The notes under the pieces were generated by a model. It did not search any database. It had not been told where the DNA came from and saw nothing but the letters and a program-made list of their open reading frames with translations. A stretch of DNA of 64,000 bases from Alphaproteobacteria bacterium (GTDB taxonomy: Bacteria; Pseudomonadota; Alphaproteobacteria; CAAHEQ01; UBA3637): contig JAZUQR010000027.1 of assembly GCA_045605805.1 (NCBI GenBank), positions 128,001 to 192,000 of the forward strand. The letters are read 5' to 3'. This document shows, in pieces, positions 57,967 to 64,000 of this stretch. Position 1 is the first letter of the stretch. Each line of letters starts with the position of its first letter. The translations under genes and the position numbers were made by a program.

Positions 57967-58092
57967 AAAAATCCTTTCTGTCATTTGAAATATGTACACC
58001 ATTATAGAAACATTTTGCAATTTTGTCAAATACCTTGACTTTTTAATCAATTTTTGATACAATCCCGAATAATTTCAATAAAGGAGAAGAAA

Positions 58093-59856
58093 ATGAAAAT
58101 GACATATGATGAATTGCGCACATTGTGGTTGGATTTTTATAAATCAAAGCAACACAGCGAAATCCCATCGGCCTCTCTGTTGCCGGAAAATGATGCCACA
58201 GTGTTGTTCACAACGGCAGGCATGCACCCATTGGTTCCCTATCTGATGGGAGAAAAACATCCGGCCGGCAATCGTTTAACCGACATTCAAAAATGCATCC
58301 GCACAAATGATATTGCCGAAGTGGGCGACCATTGTCATTTAACATTTTTTGAAATGATGGGCAACTGGTCATTGGGGGATTATTTCAAAAAAGAAATGAT
58401 TGAATGGAGTTTTGAATTTTTAACTCAAAAATTGGGATTCAAGCCCGAACAATTGGCCGTCACCTGCTATAAAGGCGATGAAAACACCCCAAAAGACGAA
58501 GAAGCAGCCGCCATTTGGCACTCTTTGGGCTTAAAAGACAATCAGATTTTCTTTTTAGAAGATAACTGGTGGGGCTTGGCCGATGGGGGGCCATGCGGGC
58601 CGGATACGGAAATGTTCATTGACAACGGCAAACCAGCCTGTGGCCCAGCATGTAATCCATCTTGCAACTGTGGCAAATACACCGAAATTTGGAACGATGT
58701 ATTTATGCAATACTTAAAGAAAAAAGACGGTACATTAGAACCGCTGTCTCAAAAGAATGTGGATACGGGAATGGGGTTGGAACGCACACTTGCTTTCTTA
58801 AATGGCGAAGGCGATGTATTTATGACAGAATTATTTGAAGAATCTCGCTTGAAATTAGAAGAAATCAGCGGTAAAAAATATACTGATAATTTGGTGCCAT
58901 TCCGCAAAGTGTTAGACCATTTACGCACAGCAGTGTTCATTTTGGGGGATGATAAAGGCATTCCACCAAGCAACACTGATCAAGGTTATGTTTTGCGGCG
59001 TCTTATCCGCATTGCCATCCGCAACTTAAAGAAATTGGATGTCACCGATTTTGTTTTGGCCAAATTAGCGGAATCTGTTGTGAATAAATATAAAAAATAC
59101 TATCCGGAATTGGAACGCAACAAAGCCTTTATTATGGCTGAATTGGAAAAAGAAGAACAATTGTTCAACCGCACAATTACAGCCGGCTTAAAAGAAATGG
59201 ATAAAGTTCTGAACCGTGTTCAAAACAACCTGATTGATGGACAAACCGCTTTTCATCTGTATGACACCTATGGCTTTCCATTAGAGTTCACCCAAGAAAT
59301 TGCCGCAGAACATAATGTTCAAGTGGATGTGGAAGGGTTTAACAAATGCTATGAAGCCCACCAAGAACTGTCCCGTAAAGGGGCCGAACAAAAGTTCAAA
59401 GGCGGCTTGGCTGACCATTCTGAAAAGTCTGCCCACTATCATACCGCCACACACATCATGCACGCCATGTTGCGCCAAATGTTTGGGGAGACAGTGGCCC
59501 AAAAGGGAAGCAATATCACACCCGAAAGAATGCGCTTTGACTTTTCGTTTGACCGCAAGATGACCCCCGAAGAAGTGGCCGAATTGCAAGCCAAAGTCAA
59601 TGCAGTCATTGAACAAAAGATTCCTGTTGTCTGTGAAGAAAAAACATTGGATGAAGCCAAAGCCGAAGGGGCAATCGGGTTATTTGCCCATAAATATGAT
59701 GCAGAAAAGGTAAAAGTCTATACCATCGGCACAGTATCCAAAGAAGTCTGTGGCGGGCCTCATGCCCAAAACACAGGCGATTTAGGACATTTTCGCATCT
59801 TAAAAGAAGAATCTTCTTCGGCCGGTGTCCGTCGCATCAAAGCAGTGTTAGAATAA
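58093..59856 (+). CDS. alaS: Alanine--tRNA ligase, short form lacking the C-Ala domain (587 aa)
   Basis: LFTTAGMHPL, HLTFFEM, DTGMGLER, editing motifs HTATH and CGGPH; ends GVRRIKAVLE. Confidence 0.96.
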   Translation: MKMTYDELRTLWLDFYKSKQHSEIPSASLLPENDATVLFTTAGMHPLVPYLMGEKHPAGNRLTDIQKCIRTNDIAEVGDHCHLTFFEMMGNWSLGDYFKKEMIEWSFEFLTQKLGFKPEQLAVTCYKGDENTPKDEEAAAIWHSLGLKDNQIFFLEDNWWGLADGGPCGPDTEMFIDNGKPACGPACNPSCNCGKYTEIWNDVFMQYLKKKDGTLEPLSQKNVDTGMGLERTLAFLNGEGDVFMTELFEESRLKLEEISGKKYTDNLVPFRKVLDHLRTAVFILGDDKGIPPSNTDQGYVLRRLIRIAIRNLKKLDVTDFVLAKLAESVVNKYKKYYPELERNKAFIMAELEKEEQLFNRTITAGLKEMDKVLNRVQNNLIDGQTAFHLYDTYGFPLEFTQEIAAEHNVQVDVEGFNKCYEAHQELSRKGAEQKFKGGLADHSEKSAHYHTATHIMHAMLRQMFGETVAQKGSNITPERMRFDFSFDRKMTPEEVAELQAKVNAVIEQKIPVVCEEKTLDEAKAEGAIGLFAHKYDAEKVKVYTIGTVSKEVCGGPHAQNTGDLGHFRILKEESSSAGVRRIKAVLE

Positions 59857-59904: not shown

Positions 59905-60060
59905 CTATCTATCTTTCTTTTTGGAAAAATCCACATGGCGCATATAGCGGTGATGTTTAGCCTTCACAACATTTTCAAAAACAAGCGCACCACCTTTGTA
60001 TAAACCAGAACCACCCAAGGCAATCAAAGCCCCAAGGAACATAATTTGATTTAAGTTCAC
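59905..60060 (-). CDS. Small putative membrane protein (51 aa), absent from the ORF track
   Basis: GTG shares one base with the upstream TAG, AGAGGA RBS; hydrophobic N-half, basic C-half. Confidence 0.5.
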   Translation of the reverse strand: MNLNQIMFLGALIALGGSGLYKGGALVFENVVKAKHHRYMRHVDFSKKKDR

Positions 60061-60716
60061 TATCTTCCTCTATGATGTTTTTGTGCCTGGTATACACATT
60101 GGGCTTTATCTGCTTCTGCCTGACGCTTGTGAATATCTGTAAGAAGACCCTTCAAATACGCTTCTCGTTGAAAAGGCAATTTATTATGGTTCTTTTTTCT
60201 AAATTGTGCATCTTCCTTCCAAATCGTTTCCATTGTTTCAGCAATTTTCAGATGCCTCTGTTTTTGCGCCAAATGTACATTCGCAACGCCTTCGTTTTCG
60301 GCATTATACATTGCTGCATTGGCACATTGGATGCGAGATATTAATGAATCTTTCACCCAATCACGGCCATAATTTTGAGTCCCTTCTATATACGTTCTCA
60401 AATCATTCAAATAGTCTTTATAACACTTCACTTGCATCTCATTACAAAAAACAGCCTTTTTGCGAATATCCCATAAAGTGCTGGATTCATTAATTGGTAA
60501 TTGCCAACCAGCCTCTTCACCATAATTGTAAATACGTTCTGCTATAATCTGTCGCTTTGCTTCTTCCTTGCGTTCAGCGGCCCTCCCTTTGCCGACTGCA
60601 CAGACACCACCGGCAACAATAGAACTAAGAGCAACAGTCAAACCAACCGTTTTCAGTTTGGCAATTGTTTGTTTCTTTTTAAGTTTTGCATGATCTACCG
60701 CTGTTCCAAAAGGCAT
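60060..60716 (-). CDS. Hypothetical membrane-anchored protein
   Basis: AGGAGG RBS, one TM helix after a basic N-terminus, helical body. Confidence 0.75.
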   Translation of the reverse strand: MPFGTAVDHAKLKKKQTIAKLKTVGLTVALSSIVAGGVCAVGKGRAAERKEEAKRQIIAERIYNYGEEAGWQLPINESSTLWDIRKKAVFCNEMQVKCYKDYLNDLRTYIEGTQNYGRDWVKDSLISRIQCANAAMYNAENEGVANVHLAQKQRHLKIAETMETIWKEDAQFRKKNHNKLPFQREAYLKGLLTDIHKRQAEADKAQCVYQAQKHHRGR

Positions 60717-60754
60717 ATTTTGTTCCTCCTGTTAAAAATTGCATCTGTAGATAA

Positions 60755-60783
60755 ATTATACCATAAAACAAAATTTTTGTCAA
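60755..60783 (-). promoter_or_regulatory. Consensus sigma70 promoter for the 218-aa gene
   Basis: Minus strand TTGACA-17 bp-TATAAT with extended -10 TG. Confidence 0.8.
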
Positions 60784-60809: not shown

Positions 60810-60841
60810 AAAGAAAAACAACCTATGTATTTCAATAGGTT
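60810..60841 (-). terminator. Terminator, probably the original one downstream of the tRNA-Ser
   Basis: Minus strand AACCTAT-TGAAATAC-ATAGGTT followed by GTTTTTCTTT, 10 bp after the distal CCGCCA core. Confidence 0.6.
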
Positions 60842-60851
60842 ATTTTGAAAG

Positions 60852-60879
60852 TGGCGGGCAATGCTGTGCATAATGGGAA
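60852..60879. repeat. 28-bp att-like direct repeat, copy 1
   Basis: TGGCGGGCAATGCTGTGCATAATGGGAA, identical to 61713-61740; starts with the TGGCGG core of the tRNA 3' end. Confidence 0.95.
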
Positions 60880-60880
60880 C

Positions 60881-61482
60881 TCATTTAATTGTCTGATTTT
60901 TCGTATTCTCAATATTTTTATTTACTTTATAGATATAGTATGTATCATATTTGGAACCTAAGGAAAACTCCTTTTTTGGTTCCATATCTGGAATTGGAAA
61001 CCGATTGACATAAAGAAGGGTACTTTTTTTTGCTTCTGTTTGACATTTAGTGCTGATTTTTTTCATTAAGTGGGATAATAAAAATAAAAATATAATATCA
61101 GCTTTGGATATATCTGCGTTAAAGAAATTTTGACGATAAAACTCGATATTTTTCATTTTTCTGGCTCTAAATCTACTAACTAAATAGGGAACCACCCATA
61201 TTCAATTCCAATAAACTTGTGCTGTGGAAATTGTTGCGCCAAGGGTAAAAGTAAGGTACCCCAACCGCTTCCCAAATCCATTATGGTTTGATTTTTTCTT
61301 TTCTCTAAAAGTTGAGCAACATTTTTTAACATAGCCCTTTTAACTTTTCCACTTGATGGAACAGGTGGTGCATTGCGCATAAAACTGGAATTAAAAGCAA
61401 AATAGATGGTTATTATTCCCACACAGAATATAACTAACATTAATAAAGTTTGCAATAACACCAACAAATAAATAAGAACCAT
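60881..61482 (-). pseudogene. Frameshifted membrane-anchored class I SAM-dependent methyltransferase
   Basis: ORF1 has a TM helix, PPVPS, MDLGSGWG and IGIE; ORF2 continues PYLVSR...NFFNADISKADIIFLFL; adding one base at TGGTTCCCTAT (~61185-61194) joins them. Confidence 0.8.
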
Positions 61483-61523
61483 ATATCCTTATCCTTCCGT
61501 GTTAATTTATAAAATTTTTTACT

Positions 61524-61718
61524 AAAATGTTCGAATGTCGGTAAGGGTTCCAAACAGCGTTAAAAATGTGAAATGTAATAAATTCAAGCGCTTACTGCGT
61601 TATCGGTTCGATTGTTGAAAAAGTATGTGCTTTTTGACCAAACAACATTTGAACCAGCTTAACATATTGAAAACAAAAGAAAAAGTCGCTATTTTAAGCG
61701 ACTTGTTCACTTTGGCGG
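61524..61718. repeat. ~195-bp structured arm, copy A
   Basis: Imperfect direct repeat of 63763-63958; includes terminator stem AAGTCGCT/AGCGACTT. Confidence 0.92.
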
Positions 61719-61740
61719 GCAATGCTGTGCATAATGGGAA
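61713..61740. repeat. 28-bp att-like direct repeat, copy 2
   Basis: Identical to 60852-60879. Confidence 0.95.
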
Positions 61741-61777
61741 GTCATCTAGAGCATTTTGATACATAAAAGGTCTTAAC

Positions 61778-63691
61778 TCAACCTCCTGCCTGTGGGGTAT
61801 TTTGTCCTTTTAAAATAGAAAGAGGAGGTTGTTTTTTATTTGAAAGCGATCTTTTATCAGCACTTTTGGAAAGCATTTGTATTAAACCGGATTTACCTGT
61901 ATTATTCCCAGACTTCTTATGCGACTTAACGGAAGAAGTTAAAGGACTGTTTTCTGGAAATCTATCAATATTCTCCTGACTGATAATCGGCTTCCCATAT
62001 TTGTCCTTTAATGACATAAGGATAGGTAATTGTTCAGCATAATCTGAATGTGCCTGAATAAGACTTTCTAACAATATATTCTTTCCTTCTTTTGTATCAA
62101 AAGTCTTACGGGAAAGTGGTAGATTTCCTTTTTCATCTTTAATTGCATCAAATAATAATTTAATTTCTTCCTTGCAATTTTTTCCTCTACTTATGTCTCG
62201 CACCCAAATATCCAATGCTTTAGCAAATTGTTCCTCTCTAACAAGTACCTTTCCATCACGACCTGTTAATTTTAGTATTTGAGGAAGTAATGGAAGCATT
62301 TTAATCCAGTCCTCATCGTAAGGACCGAAATGTCCCAAAAACACATTCCTCGTGTTATCAAAAGAGGCTCGTAAATCTTTTTCTATAAGGGGTAGACGTC
62401 CTTCATCATCTGAAAGAATAGCAACAGACTTTTTAAAATCTTCTGGAATCTTTGTTTTAAAAGACAATATATTCGCAATATTTTCTGAAGTCGCTATTTT
62501 TTCACCATCACGAGTAGCCTCAACTAGGTACTTTAATGCAGCGGGACTAATAATTTGCTGAATACCACAACCTTTAAAAAGATCTCTAACTTTTTCTATA
62601 TTAAATACATATTGAGAATCAGTTCTTTTCAATGTCAATATATCGTGAATCTGTGCTGGTGAAGCATTTTCCAATATGTATCCTAAAACCTCTTCATAAT
62701 CCTTGGGCATTTTTTCATCAACACCATCATGTAAAAGACGTATATATTCATCCAGATGGTTATTCTTTTTGGCTTGCAATAACTTTCCTCGAAAACGTCT
62801 AGCTCTTCTAGGGGCTTCTTGTAATTTTTTCATCAAACTTTGTGGTAAGTGAAATACCTCTGGAATACAATCTAAACCTGGATCATTTTCCCCAATTGGA
62901 GCTCTCATATCATATAAATCTTTATAAGGACTACCATATACTCTATCTAATATGGCACTTATCGCCTCTTCTTCAATTTTTTTATCACCTCTATGGCTCA
63001 CATCATTTGCGTGTTTTTTTAATATTTCTTCATACGTTTTAACCCCAGTCATTTTAGTATCATCTGTATGACCAAAAATTTCATAATAAGCTCGCGCACC
63101 GGTTTCAAATGCTTGTGCTTCTGATAAAAATTCAAGCTGATGCCAAGCATAGGCATTTTCTATTGGAATTCCAAAAAACGAAGCATTCATCATACGTTCT
63201 TCCTGATGATAGGCAGCCTCATCATTTTGTTCTGCGTGTTTGAGTTCATGTGATAATACTAAAACTAAAAAATTAAGATCATCCACCTTTTCAAAAACAA
63301 CCTTATTGTCCATCGGTCCATATGAAGCCGCAGATTTTGCCTCCTTATCTCCGTTATTTCTTTCTCTGACTATTGTAGTGTCAATTATGAGAGGGTTCGT
63401 ATCTTGACGAAAGGTTGAAAATTTATGATACAAAGGTGTTTCCTTACCATTCAGTTCATAAATCAATTTTAAAGCCTGTTGAACCTTTTGTTCTCTTTCG
63501 CTTAAATTTAATTTTGGATTATTCGGGTAATCTTCTGGATATATAAACTCACGAATAGAGCATGTTTTTATTTTGCTTTTTAACTCTTTTGCTCTTTCTT
63601 CATCTATAAAACTATGTTCAAGAAGATATTGCTCCTCTTCTGTCAATAAAACCCCATATGACACTTTTATCATATCCATTGAATTTTCCAT
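61778..63691 (-). CDS. Hypothetical 637-aa protein with an HExxH metallopeptidase-like domain and degenerate C-terminal repeats
   Basis: AAGGAG RBS; LSHELKHAEQ plus downstream EAQAF; repeated L..(D/R)..G....I units. Confidence 0.75.
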   Translation of the reverse strand: MENSMDMIKVSYGVLLTEEEQYLLEHSFIDEERAKELKSKIKTCSIREFIYPEDYPNNPKLNLSEREQKVQQALKLIYELNGKETPLYHKFSTFRQDTNPLIIDTTIVRERNNGDKEAKSAASYGPMDNKVVFEKVDDLNFLVLVLSHELKHAEQNDEAAYHQEERMMNASFFGIPIENAYAWHQLEFLSEAQAFETGARAYYEIFGHTDDTKMTGVKTYEEILKKHANDVSHRGDKKIEEEAISAILDRVYGSPYKDLYDMRAPIGENDPGLDCIPEVFHLPQSLMKKLQEAPRRARRFRGKLLQAKKNNHLDEYIRLLHDGVDEKMPKDYEEVLGYILENASPAQIHDILTLKRTDSQYVFNIEKVRDLFKGCGIQQIISPAALKYLVEATRDGEKIATSENIANILSFKTKIPEDFKKSVAILSDDEGRLPLIEKDLRASFDNTRNVFLGHFGPYDEDWIKMLPLLPQILKLTGRDGKVLVREEQFAKALDIWVRDISRGKNCKEEIKLLFDAIKDEKGNLPLSRKTFDTKEGKNILLESLIQAHSDYAEQLPILMSLKDKYGKPIISQENIDRFPENSPLTSSVKSHKKSGNNTGKSGLIQMLSKSADKRSLSNKKQPPLSILKGQNTPQAGG

Positions 63692-63762
63692 AATGTTCTC
63701 CTTTTTTTATCACACTAACATATTTTAATGTGATTTACAACACAAATGGTGTAATCACTCAA

Positions 63763-63958
63763 AAAATGTTCGAGTGTCAGTAAGGGTTTCAAACAGTGTC
63801 AAAAATGCGAAATGCTTTAAAATCAATCGCTTACTGAGTTATCGGTTCGATTGTTGAACAAAGTATGCCTATTTTTCCTGCTTAACAATCGAACCGCCTT
63901 AAACCATTGAAAATAAAAGAAAAAGTCGTCATTTCTGACGACTTGTTCACTTTGGCGG
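63763..63958. repeat. ~195-bp structured arm, copy B, directly after the tRNA
   Basis: Imperfect direct repeat of 61524-61718; perfect 13-bp inverted repeat at 63843-63855/63884-63896. Confidence 0.92.
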
Positions 63959-64000
63959 AGCGTACAGGATTTGAACCTGTGCATCCCTTTAACAGGATGA
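63953..64000 (-). tRNA. 3' part of a long-variable-arm tRNA, probably tRNA-Ser (anticodon outside the window)
   Basis: Minus strand CATCCTGTTAAAGGGATG variable arm, ACAGG-TTCAAAT-CCTGT T-arm, ends CGCTCC-G-CCA with discriminator G. Confidence 0.88.

Follow-up and report, generated by a model that had tools for sequence, protein, structure and literature searches.

The locus described here raises the question of how genes that bring no recombinase of their own come to be stacked behind the intact end of a tRNA gene. It lies in the genome of an uncultured rumen alphaproteobacterium (G000), a metagenome-assembled genome (MAG) of 1.21 Mb in 31 contigs with a completeness of 98.85%, and the stretch of DNA that was analysed, referred to below as the window, comprises 64,000 nucleotides (G000:C27:128001-192000, where C stands for contig). 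At one end of the window two genes follow tRNA-Ser(GCT), each enclosed between an arm of about 190 nt on the side of the tRNA and a site of about 30 nt, the P-site, after the stop codon; arm, cargo and P-site together are called a cassette. The locus probably consists of non-autonomous cassettes that are moved by site-specific recombination in the last 6–8 bp of the tRNA gene, with the recombinase supplied in trans.

About 100 loci (L) were fetched from relatives (G001–G020) and metagenomes; arms were mapped in them by nhmmer and tRNA genes by ARAGORN, together with sites and open reading frames (ORFs). A covariance model, R1, was built from the first 112 nt of the arm and searched against 80 genomes of the bacterial family; the search at the level of the order comprised the same 80 genomes. 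Junctions were tabulated for 57 arm starts from these loci, and the anatomy of the arm was derived from 29 aligned copies. Four metagenome runs (X1–X4; animal gut, feces and bovine gut metagenomes) were represented by assembled contigs only, each containing at most 0.22 of the sampled words.

The array at tRNA-Ser(GCT) and the build of a cassette

Read on the minus strand, the array consists of tRNA-Ser(GCT), a first arm, a gene for 637 amino acids (aa), a site, a second arm, a frameshifted methyltransferase gene, an identical site and a terminator. This layout, apart from the frameshift, had been proposed in a first-pass annotation made from the sequence alone, and every part of it was recovered in its place. 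The tRNA gene occupies 63953-64041, of which the window holds 63953-64000 (ARAGORN on the whole contig C27, c[191953,192041]; Rfam tRNA, 63 bits); a scan restricted to the window missed it because the gene extends beyond the window. The bases at its 3´ end, CTCCGCCA, are the anchor and the crossover region of the array, the crossover itself presumably falling within the shared 6–8 bp. All features of the array described below lie on the minus strand.

Arm 1, the P´ arm of cassette 1, spans the 190 nt from 63763 to 63952 and scores 122 bits with R1. It contains a terminator hairpin (63923-63944), the inverted repeats GGTTCGATTG and CAATCGAACC (63843-63860 and 63879-63896), a block of the form TAA-N4-TTGAT and a final GACACTCGAAC. 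The 637-aa ORF follows at 61778-63691 (ORF list and Pfam). Its product has an HExxH motif and a weak match, below the Pfam cut-off, to DUF6782, a putative metallopeptidase; it belongs to a small, lineage-restricted family of 14 proteins in a collection of 5.8 billion. The cassette closes with a P-site of 28 nt ending in GCCCGCCA (61713-61740), which together with arm 2 forms a site|arm junction resembling an attP.

Arm 2, the P´ arm of cassette 2, lies at 61524-61712, with its terminator hairpin at 61683-61704, and shares 80% identity with arm 1 over 190 nt (blastn, E 3e-43). The second cargo, a gene resembling those of class I S-adenosylmethionine (SAM)-dependent methyltransferases, was found where the first-pass annotation had placed it (60881-61482); it is not the intact gene supposed there, being frameshifted, since it is split into two overlapping ORFs (61180-61482 and 60881-61195). 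A contig of X3 has one extra base at L001:3192, which corresponds to window position 61192, where the G000 gene is frameshifted. The P-site of cassette 2 (60852-60879, again 28 nt ending in GCCCGCCA) is the distal end of the array. As had been reported, the two P-sites are identical (28/28, and 34/36 once the upstream bases are added) and the units measure 2240 and 861 bp, the core copies being spaced 2239/2240 and 861 nt apart; the exact repeat within the array amounts to 28–33 nt. The distal flank (60813-60851) starts with 10 nt, followed by the hairpin AACCTATTGAAATACATAGGTT and a T-run (60813-60841). Neither cargo is a recombinase according to a Pfam scan of the window proteins, in agreement with the initial description.

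The three junctions of the array, tRNA|arm, site|arm and site|flank, break exactly after CCA, as the first reading had it, and the same holds across the table of 57 arm starts. All 21 arms behind a tRNA gene begin 1–2 nt after CCA. Nearly all of the other 36 lie behind a short site ending in CCA, a few rows being off by one base; the exceptions are an arm at a tRNA-Ser end cut by the contig, a start on the reverse strand of the same hairpin and the arm at C21:130154, which has no site in front of it. Flush arms occur behind tRNA-Ser (gct, tga, cga and gga), Met, Glu(ttc), Gln(ctg), Arg(tct) and Pro(ggg), to which metagenome contigs add Lys(ttt), at least seven amino-acid families in all. Dozens of cassettes are built alike: the arm is complete, at about 190 nt, the cargo starts some 20–350 nt further on, and the P-site of about 30 nt directly follows the stop codon.

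The arm opens with eight type-specific bases, followed by ACAAGTCG, the hairpin, CGAC and a T-run. Three apical pairs of the hairpin covary (7, 8 and 12 double changes among the 29 copies), its G–U pairs fit the tRNA strand, and a terminator scan calls it a terminator. The inverted repeat, GGTTCGATTG and CAACAATCGAACC about 27 nt apart, is almost invariant, with a paired variant GAATG/CATTC in three copies. The ends of the block TAA-N4-TTGATTT are invariant and its middle is variable; over the 29 arms, the half-sites and TAA-N4-TTGAT are invariant and the spacers vary. On the opposite strand, the block fits the consensus for integration host factor (IHF), and G000 has four genes of the HU/IHF family. 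The arm ends in GACAYTCGAAC. No Rfam family matched the arms at E ≤ 1. The idea that the arms are promoters was rejected, given that a consensus sigma-70 scan found no promoter inside them.

The skeleton of the P-site is AGYTC-N5-TTGCRCA-N5, followed by 6–8 nt that repeat the end of the tRNA heading the array, about 30 nt in total. The last bases change with the tRNA: CCGCCA for Ser, TCGCCA for Glu, CAACCA for Met, TCCGACCA for Pro and CTCACCA for Lys. In most P-sites the tRNA copy is 6–8 nt long, and in some Lys-type sites and the G011 site it reaches 10–16 nt. Within the composite of site and arm there is also a weak outer inverted repeat, AGTTC ... GAACT; target duplication was not observed there.

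The first motif of the P-site is a further copy of the half-site found in the arm of its own cassette. The flavours of P-site and arm match in the main family, in the tRNA-Gln array on C10 (CTCGGAA, GTCCGYGTA) and in the Met and Pro arrays, with GAGTTCGTRAAT against ATTTACGAACTC. Because the flavours match within one cassette, the P-site and the arm that a circle would join belong together, and the match therefore fits a partition into arm, cargo and site with the break at CCA. Among the cassette sub-families of a single genome the half-sites come in different flavours, GTTCGATTG, GTCCGTGTA and CTCGGAAT, with their inverted symmetry kept.

Distribution, turnover and cargo

The first-pass annotation covered a small part of the system; arms and sites are present elsewhere in G000, behind the several tRNA families named above and throughout the bacterial family. 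R1 matches 70 of the 80 genomes, in 15 of 16 genera, with up to 35 matches per genome and 13 in G000; the genomes of the family measure 1.0–2.0 Mb. Further full arms of G000 are located at C7:1007-1193, directly after tRNA-Ser(tga), at C27:2076-2265 and at C21:130154-130342, and about ten diverged or partial arms lie behind tRNA-Gln, tRNA-Met, tRNA-Leu and tRNA copies. Two of the four tRNA-Ser genes of this genome have cassettes behind them. The one at tRNA-Ser(tga) is divided by a contig break, its parts lying at the starts of C7 and C1, and is closed by a further P-site at C1:373-402. At tRNA-Glu(ttc), Arg(tct), Pro(ggg) and one tRNA-Met, arms occur in some species and not in G000.

A scan with the arm pattern over one genome per species returned 23 matches, 22 of them in MAGs of uncultured Alphaproteobacteria or Pseudomonadota, many from rumen, omasum or abomasum. 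No arm was found by BLAST in 16 genomes of the same class. The pattern had no match in the IMG/VR viral contigs, and blastn found none in PLSDB plasmids or INPHARED phages.

A second array of G000 (C10:67686-72720) stands behind tRNA-Gln(ttg), with four diverged arms of the flavours CTCGGAAT and GTCCGTGTA and with sites ending in CCAGCCA or CCCGCCA, so that site types are mixed in one array. It contains a conserved stretch of about 60 nt, CATCAATTC.TTC.GCGTT.CCACTTGAA.T.ATTGTGT.TCATTG, at C10:69560-69620, which is also found at C27:73531-73812, between the terminator of a tRNA-Met and a tRNA-copy site.

At tRNA-Ser(gct), the gene that heads the array of the window, relatives were expected to differ in cassette number and cargo while keeping the same ends, and this is what the 16 species with the gene in view show. 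An arm follows directly in 10 of them: five have one closed cassette (G009, G012, G019, G014, G001) and three have two (G000, G004, G015), and in the remaining two (G017, G016) the array is cut by the contig end or no site is visible. The six others (G020, G008, G003, G005, G011, G013) have no type-A arm at this gene; in G013 the place is taken by an element with a 587-aa DUF6538 integrase and a different arm. The interval between tRNA-Ser(gct) and alaS, a plus-strand gene (58054-59856; 600 aa) that forms its conserved far flank, is wholly different in G000, G020, G008, where it contains an autotransporter, and G009. Partial arms of 28–56 nt lie behind the last site in several arrays.

An empty site had also been predicted. 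The clearest instance is an uninterrupted junction in G011, in which the CCA of the tRNA is followed by an element of 170–180 nt beginning TAGAGTACAG; the same element stands after the last P-site in G014, G001 and G002, with 83–86% identity over 145–179 nt. It is a third type of arm, with three direct GTTCGAA repeats and a T-arm-like end, and the genomes diverge downstream of it. For G000 itself the prediction is borne out weakly: the distal flank resembles the sequence after tRNA-Ser(gct) in G005 at about 31 of 38 nt, with one compensatory change in the stem, and no homology was detected between the two beyond this terminator of about 38 nt. The argument from empty sites therefore rests on G011 against G014, G001 and G002, because the G000 flank shares only a terminator with G005.

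The metagenome contigs offer further views of the array. In one X1 contig, 584 nt of other sequence separate the end of alaS from the initial 36 nt of an arm and the P-site of the 637-aa cassette, and other X1 contigs cover the 637-aa gene at about 94–95% identity. They therefore point to a relative with cassette 1 and without either the methyltransferase cassette or the 218-aa ORF that G000 has between array and alaS. An X3 contig keeps the G000 order of flank, site, methyltransferase and arm 2, and in another X3 record the methyltransferase cassette is joined through a variant P-site to the start of an arm. The coverage gap of X3 at L001:3708-5731, over the 637-aa gene, and the little or absent coverage of the methyltransferase gene in X1, X2 and X4 are gaps in contig data and have no evidential weight.

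The cargo is diverse. Comparison by blastp sorted the 49 first ORFs behind arms into 43 clusters; no recombinase was found among them, nor among the Pfam or weaker matches of the 20 cargo proteins that were scanned. Nine of these 20 have a Pfam family over the cut-off, one has a weak MORN match below it and 10 have none. The families are radical SAM, a second tyrosyl-tRNA synthetase (TyrRS), histidine phosphatase, M20 peptidase, GNAT acetyltransferase, periplasmic binding protein, chromate transporter, MBOAT/AlgX-like and AP_endonuc_2. The TyrRS gene accompanies the radical-SAM gene in a G012 cassette behind tRNA-Ser(gct) (L031:9105-11316); its product is 44% identical to that of the tyrS gene of G000 (C19:11585-12718) and may be an auxiliary or drug-insensitive second synthetase.

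Some cargoes occur at more than one kind of tRNA. G000 and G014 share a cargo of 302/323 aa (68% protein identity), which stands behind tRNA-Ser(tga) in the former and behind tRNA-Ser(cga) in the latter. A cassette of the Ser array of G011 and one of the Lys array of G004 share 82% DNA and 90.5% protein identity; the homology runs from arm position +9 through the cargo to about 10 nt past the stop codon, and the two cassettes are type-specific (Ser versus Lys) in their P-sites and at arm bases +1 to +8. In a circle, the differing parts would lie side by side and cover some 36 uninterrupted bp across the junction, and judging from this comparison the core that sets the target is expected to lie there.

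Cargo relatives are also encoded outside the arrays. A locus of G000 resembling a diversity-generating retroelement (DGR; C8:49800-53900, L129:2816-6866) combines a 349-aa reverse transcriptase and an ORF of 649 aa with a bAvd-like 197-aa ORF, whose match is below the Pfam cut-off. Over its N-terminal half, the 649-aa ORF shares 78% identity with the cargo of the G014 cassette at tRNA-Ser(cga), and this half is also related to the cargo of the G000 cassette at tRNA-Ser(tga). This reverse transcriptase is the only one in G000, and an RNA-based mechanism for the cassettes was rejected, no arm segment having been seen to covary with the tRNA-specific core.

Mechanism, search for a recombinase and rival explanations

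The proposed mechanism takes as its unit the cassette, in which one to three cargo genes stand between the arm of about 190 nt and the P-site of about 30 nt. In the arm, the terminator hairpin, which would replace that of the tRNA itself, is followed by the inverted GTTCGATTG half-sites, the IHF-fitting block and a last TCGAAC half-site. In a circular cassette, P-site and arm would be joined into an attP-like site of about 225 bp. Conservative recombination inside the shared 6–8 bp (CCGCCA for serine) would insert the circle at a tRNA|arm, site|arm or tRNA|flank junction, so that cassettes would stack; the tRNA would be left intact and each cassette would supply a terminator. The recombinase would act in trans, most likely as a tyrosine recombinase of the lambda type helped by IHF. 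Site-specific recombination of a circular cassette fits the observations because the junctions lie exactly at CCA, the identity with the tRNA spans 6–8 nt, the tRNA stays intact and the arm holds half-sites and an IHF-like block.

G000 encodes six tyrosine recombinases (PF00589), namely two Xer-like proteins, two of the DUF6538 type (584 aa at C7:57525-59279 and 593 aa at C21:76146-77927) and one each of 501 and 198 aa, none of them near the array, and eight serine recombinases; no Y1 HUH enzyme (PF01797, which matches in control genomes), IS110-type or rve-type enzyme was found in this genome. By tblastn, two tRNA-Gln arms have Xer-like genes at a distance of 3 kb, with conserved synteny, and the small serine recombinases are located within integrase elements or next to tRNA-Phe. 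The large serine recombinases near various tRNAs are ordinary integrases rather than a conserved core gene, because they are 41–46% alike. The DUF6538-kind integrases and their distant relatives stand flush with a tRNA CCA in 12 of 14 loci, L109 and L119 being without such a junction. A hunt for operators marked no candidate regulator gene by a half-site 9-mer, because these 9-mers occur almost only in arms.

Behind tRNA-Thr(ggt), G000 has an integrative element of the DUF6538 type that measures about 26 kb (C21:75837-101704). Its 593-aa integrase adjoins the tRNA, and it also encodes the 198-aa tyrosine recombinase together with two small serine recombinases. A 19-nt tRNA copy at its end is followed by a cassette-type arm, and for this reason it is read as having inserted between the tRNA and an older arm.

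Xer was considered as the helper. It is the only recombinase present in every genome checked (six genomes), and by eye the start of the P-site resembles the XerC-side arm of the dif-like site of the genome at 8–9 of 11 positions. A Xer crossover was rejected, given that the central region would lie 17–22 nt upstream of the break and the exchange would destroy the intact tRNA. Four dif-like sites, TTCGCATAATTTAYATTATGT, were located in G000, at C7:8084 and at the ends of C4 (10836), C23 (11176) and C30 (52042). They are unlike the cassette junction, and three of them are at contig ends. Contig C23 measures 11 kb and has 33.5% G+C, against about 41% for the genome; it and the other contig ends with dif-like sites may represent a Xer-dependent element integrated at dif.

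Several results weigh against the proposed mechanism. With the 14 G000 recombinases as queries, tblastn found none in or next to any cassette of the ~100 loci. The integrase-bearing element with the same ends that the first-pass annotation had looked forward to did not turn up: no such element with cassette-type arms was found in the ~100 loci, viral contigs, plasmids or phages, a search in which unbinned helpers may have escaped. The arms of the DUF6538-type elements differ from cassette arms in 14 of 14 loci, typically combining a hairpin with three direct repeats such as GTGTAACAC, and the one such element seen with both ends has a 19-nt tRNA copy, starting in the T-loop, at its far end. 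Their integrase is present in 35 of the 80 genomes, against 70 with arms; it is therefore not required, but may help on occasion. G014, which is 91% complete, has 10 arm matches, yet its recombinases are two Xer-like proteins and one large serine recombinase. No inverted binding sites of the core type were seen on either side of the 6–8 bp.

The remaining points of this kind concern mobility. The assembled contigs of the metagenome runs contain no circle or excision product, and X1 and G000 do not differ by a clean whole cassette. Cassette copies shared between species are 82% identical, against 77–81% for alaS; recent transfer is therefore unsupported, the shared cassettes being as diverged as core genes. 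Among the first ORFs, 32 of 49 run with the arm and 17 are antisense to it, so that the arm is not a general cargo promoter. The helper may be unbinned, rare or of an unrecognised kind; alternatively, many arrays may now be static.

A bolder version, which is possible but held here only tentatively, is that the cassettes form a separate integron-like platform that arose independently, in which the tRNA CCA ends of an entire family of rumen Alphaproteobacteria with small genomes are the landing pads for a shared pool of recombinase-less cassettes served in trans by a recombinase of their own that has escaped recognition. The attP of about 225 bp would then be modular, with a core of about 36 bp setting the tRNA specificity, and the enzyme would fall outside the element families seen at tRNAs, being perhaps a host protein that reads the T-loop-like GTTCGA half-sites.

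It is unlikely that the arrays are fossil islands, that is, integrase elements stacked at tRNA ends, in the manner of tycheposon islands or of accreted cis-mobilizable elements, that have lost their integrases and left the arms and sites as decayed, immobile attL and attR. Integrases at tRNA ends are abundant in the same genomes, where they stand flush with CCA and have a hairpin terminator in the same position, and remnants of elements are found between tRNA and arm (about 165 nt and a 19-nt tRNA copy on C25, besides the 26-kb element on C21). The partial arms behind last sites and the divergence of shared cassettes, equal to that of core genes, would suit this history as well. However, decay predicts arms of all lengths and integrase pseudogenes, instead of which dozens of uniform, full arms of about 190 nt are observed and tblastn detected no integrase fragment in any array. 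Moreover, none of the integrase elements examined (14 loci) has an arm of this kind, and the P-sites carry a conserved skeleton that does not derive from a tRNA.

Clearly less plausible is a host intergenic module behind tRNAs, either a terminator with an operator or promoter or a repeat of the repetitive extragenic palindrome (REP) or miniature inverted-repeat transposable element (MITE) kind, with the cargo swapped by homologous recombination after DNA uptake. A tRNA and its arm would offer about 280 nt of homology for such swaps, and no dedicated recombinase was found in the genomes, G014 having almost none at all. The hairpin is a bona fide terminator, judging from its covariation and its G–U pairs on the tRNA strand, and the conservation of the motif blocks in 15 of 16 genera suggests a binding factor in most genomes. 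A general operator is nevertheless contradicted by the counts, CAATCGAAC occurring nine times in G000 and eight of these in arms, and a promoter by the consensus scan and the 17 antisense first ORFs. Such a module also leaves unexplained the 6–8-nt tRNA copies of the P-sites, the exact CCA junctions, the joint variation of P-site and arm flavours and the swap of a contiguous core module.

Structure-based recombination of single-stranded DNA (ssDNA), through attC-like folding of the nested half-sites or an HUH enzyme of the IS200/IS605 kind, is very improbable. The preserved inverted symmetry of half-sites whose sequences differ between sub-families (GTTCGATTG, GTCCGTGTA, CTCGGAAT) and the hairpins some 9–10 nt to either side of the junction would be in keeping with it. 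However, the fold of the G000 composite is not unusual (z = -1.23, equalled by 24 of 200 shuffles); unlike in attC, the junction is set 30 nt into the outer repeat, and the arm hairpin is free to vary in sequence and acts like a terminator. The enzymes of G000 do not fit either, there being no Y1 HUH, IS110-type or rve-type enzyme and, among tyrosine recombinases, two Xer-like proteins and four others.

An assembly artefact or a metagenomic chimera at the repeats is scarcely credible: G000 is a MAG in 31 contigs with a contig break (C7/C1) inside its tRNA-Ser(tga) cassette, but the arms of the array are only 80% identical, the exact repeat is limited to 28–33 nt, the same architecture is found in dozens of independent assemblies and independent contigs cover parts of the array.

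Comparison with known systems and neighbouring features

Integron cassettes end in attC sites, imperfect palindromes of 57–141 nt at the 3´ end of the cassette, which are recombined as folded single strands; clusters of attC sites lacking an integron integrase are known as CALINs. To our knowledge, no other well-understood platform accumulates single-gene cassettes that lack a recombinase. The arrays described here resemble them in consisting of small, mostly single-gene, promoter-poor and recombinase-less cassettes with diverse, largely unannotated cargo, lined up at one anchor and varying in number and order between relatives. They differ in the anchor, which is an attI beside intI in integrons and the CCA end of tRNAs of many kinds here. 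They differ also in the site, a composite of about 225 bp located mostly 5´ of the cargo that shows neither a marked ssDNA fold nor an Rfam match, in the lack of an IntI-like gene in G000 and in the proportion of antisense first ORFs.

The cis-mobilizable elements (CIMEs) and the tandem accretion known from streptococci involve integrase-less, att-flanked units stacked at the 3´ ends of tRNA and other genes and moved by the integrase of a neighbour. CIMEs share att sites with an integrative conjugative or mobilizable element (ICE or IME) of known integrase and are usually deletion derivatives. The arrays agree with them in having integrase-less units bounded by direct core repeats, CCGCCA being present at all three junctions. 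They differ in that no integrase element with these arms was found in the loci and databases searched, and in that the cassettes are of 0.86–3 kb, uniformly built and spread over many tRNA types.

Modules flanked by dif sites and integrative mobile elements exploiting Xer (IMEXs) are recombinase-less and are moved by host recombinases through sites of about 28 bp. The genome's dif-like sites do not resemble the cassette junction, and the position of the crossover does not fit. Palindrome-associated transposable elements (PATEs) and other HUH-dependent elements are set apart by the lack of a PF01797 match in G000, by two hairpins that are dissimilar and by the free variation of the arm hairpin. 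MITEs differ as well, given that the cassettes carry cargo and that a break at CCA is needed to account for the half composites found beside the tRNA and the distal flank. The DUF6538 elements are alike in standing flush with the tRNA CCA, with a terminator hairpin 8–10 nt after it and then protein-binding repeats; unlike the cassettes, they have an integrase of their own, of 584–638 aa, besides the different repeats and tRNA copy already described. Of the features of a lambda-type attP, the composite has repeated arm half-sites, a putative IHF block and 6–8 nt of tRNA identity; it comes without an integrase, and no inverted core sites were seen in it.

Tycheposons of Prochlorococcus are reported to have their own site-specific integrase, to measure 10–20 kb and to be separated by partial tRNAs (bioRxiv 10.1101/2020.12.28.424599). 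The likeness lies in streamlined genomes in which cargo elements are stacked at a handful of tRNAs and form hypervariable islands (10.1101/2020.12.28.424599). The cassettes differ in having neither integrase nor replication genes and in being separated by a P-site and an arm that share 6–8 nt with the tRNA. No description of this cassette system was found in the literature searched, supplements excluded. The closest relatives are integron cassettes in logic, CIMEs and tandem accretion in mechanism and tycheposon islands in ecology; each of the three is defined by a feature that was not found for the cassettes.

The system would amount to a second platform of integron-like logic, built from different parts, in genomes of 1.0–2.0 Mb whose tRNA-adjacent intervals are hypervariable. 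If the cassettes are active, they would explain the trade of accessory genes among streamlined gut bacteria and would provide natural attachment sites at tRNA ends, with the specificity held in a swappable core of about 36 bp. They would also point to a recombinase or DNA-binding factor that recognises GTTCGA-type half-sites. Moreover, the presence of autonomous elements and miniature cassettes in one genome would then be a test bed for the origins of non-autonomous elements.

Beyond the array, towards alaS, the minus strand of the window encodes an ORF of 218 aa with a perfect consensus promoter (60060-60783; promoter TTGACA-17-TATAAT at 60755-60783). The ORF matches no Pfam family, none of the other fetched loci contains a relative of it, and in the X1 contig other sequence takes its place; it may represent one more accessory unit in this interval. 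The alaS product itself, with 600 aa, compares with homologues of 587–630 aa in the genus; Pfam recognises its catalytic and SAD domains, and this length presumably leaves no room for the usual C-terminal part of a bacterial alanyl-tRNA synthetase. Finally, ARAGORN identified a permuted tmRNA in G000, which encodes a tag beginning with ANDN.

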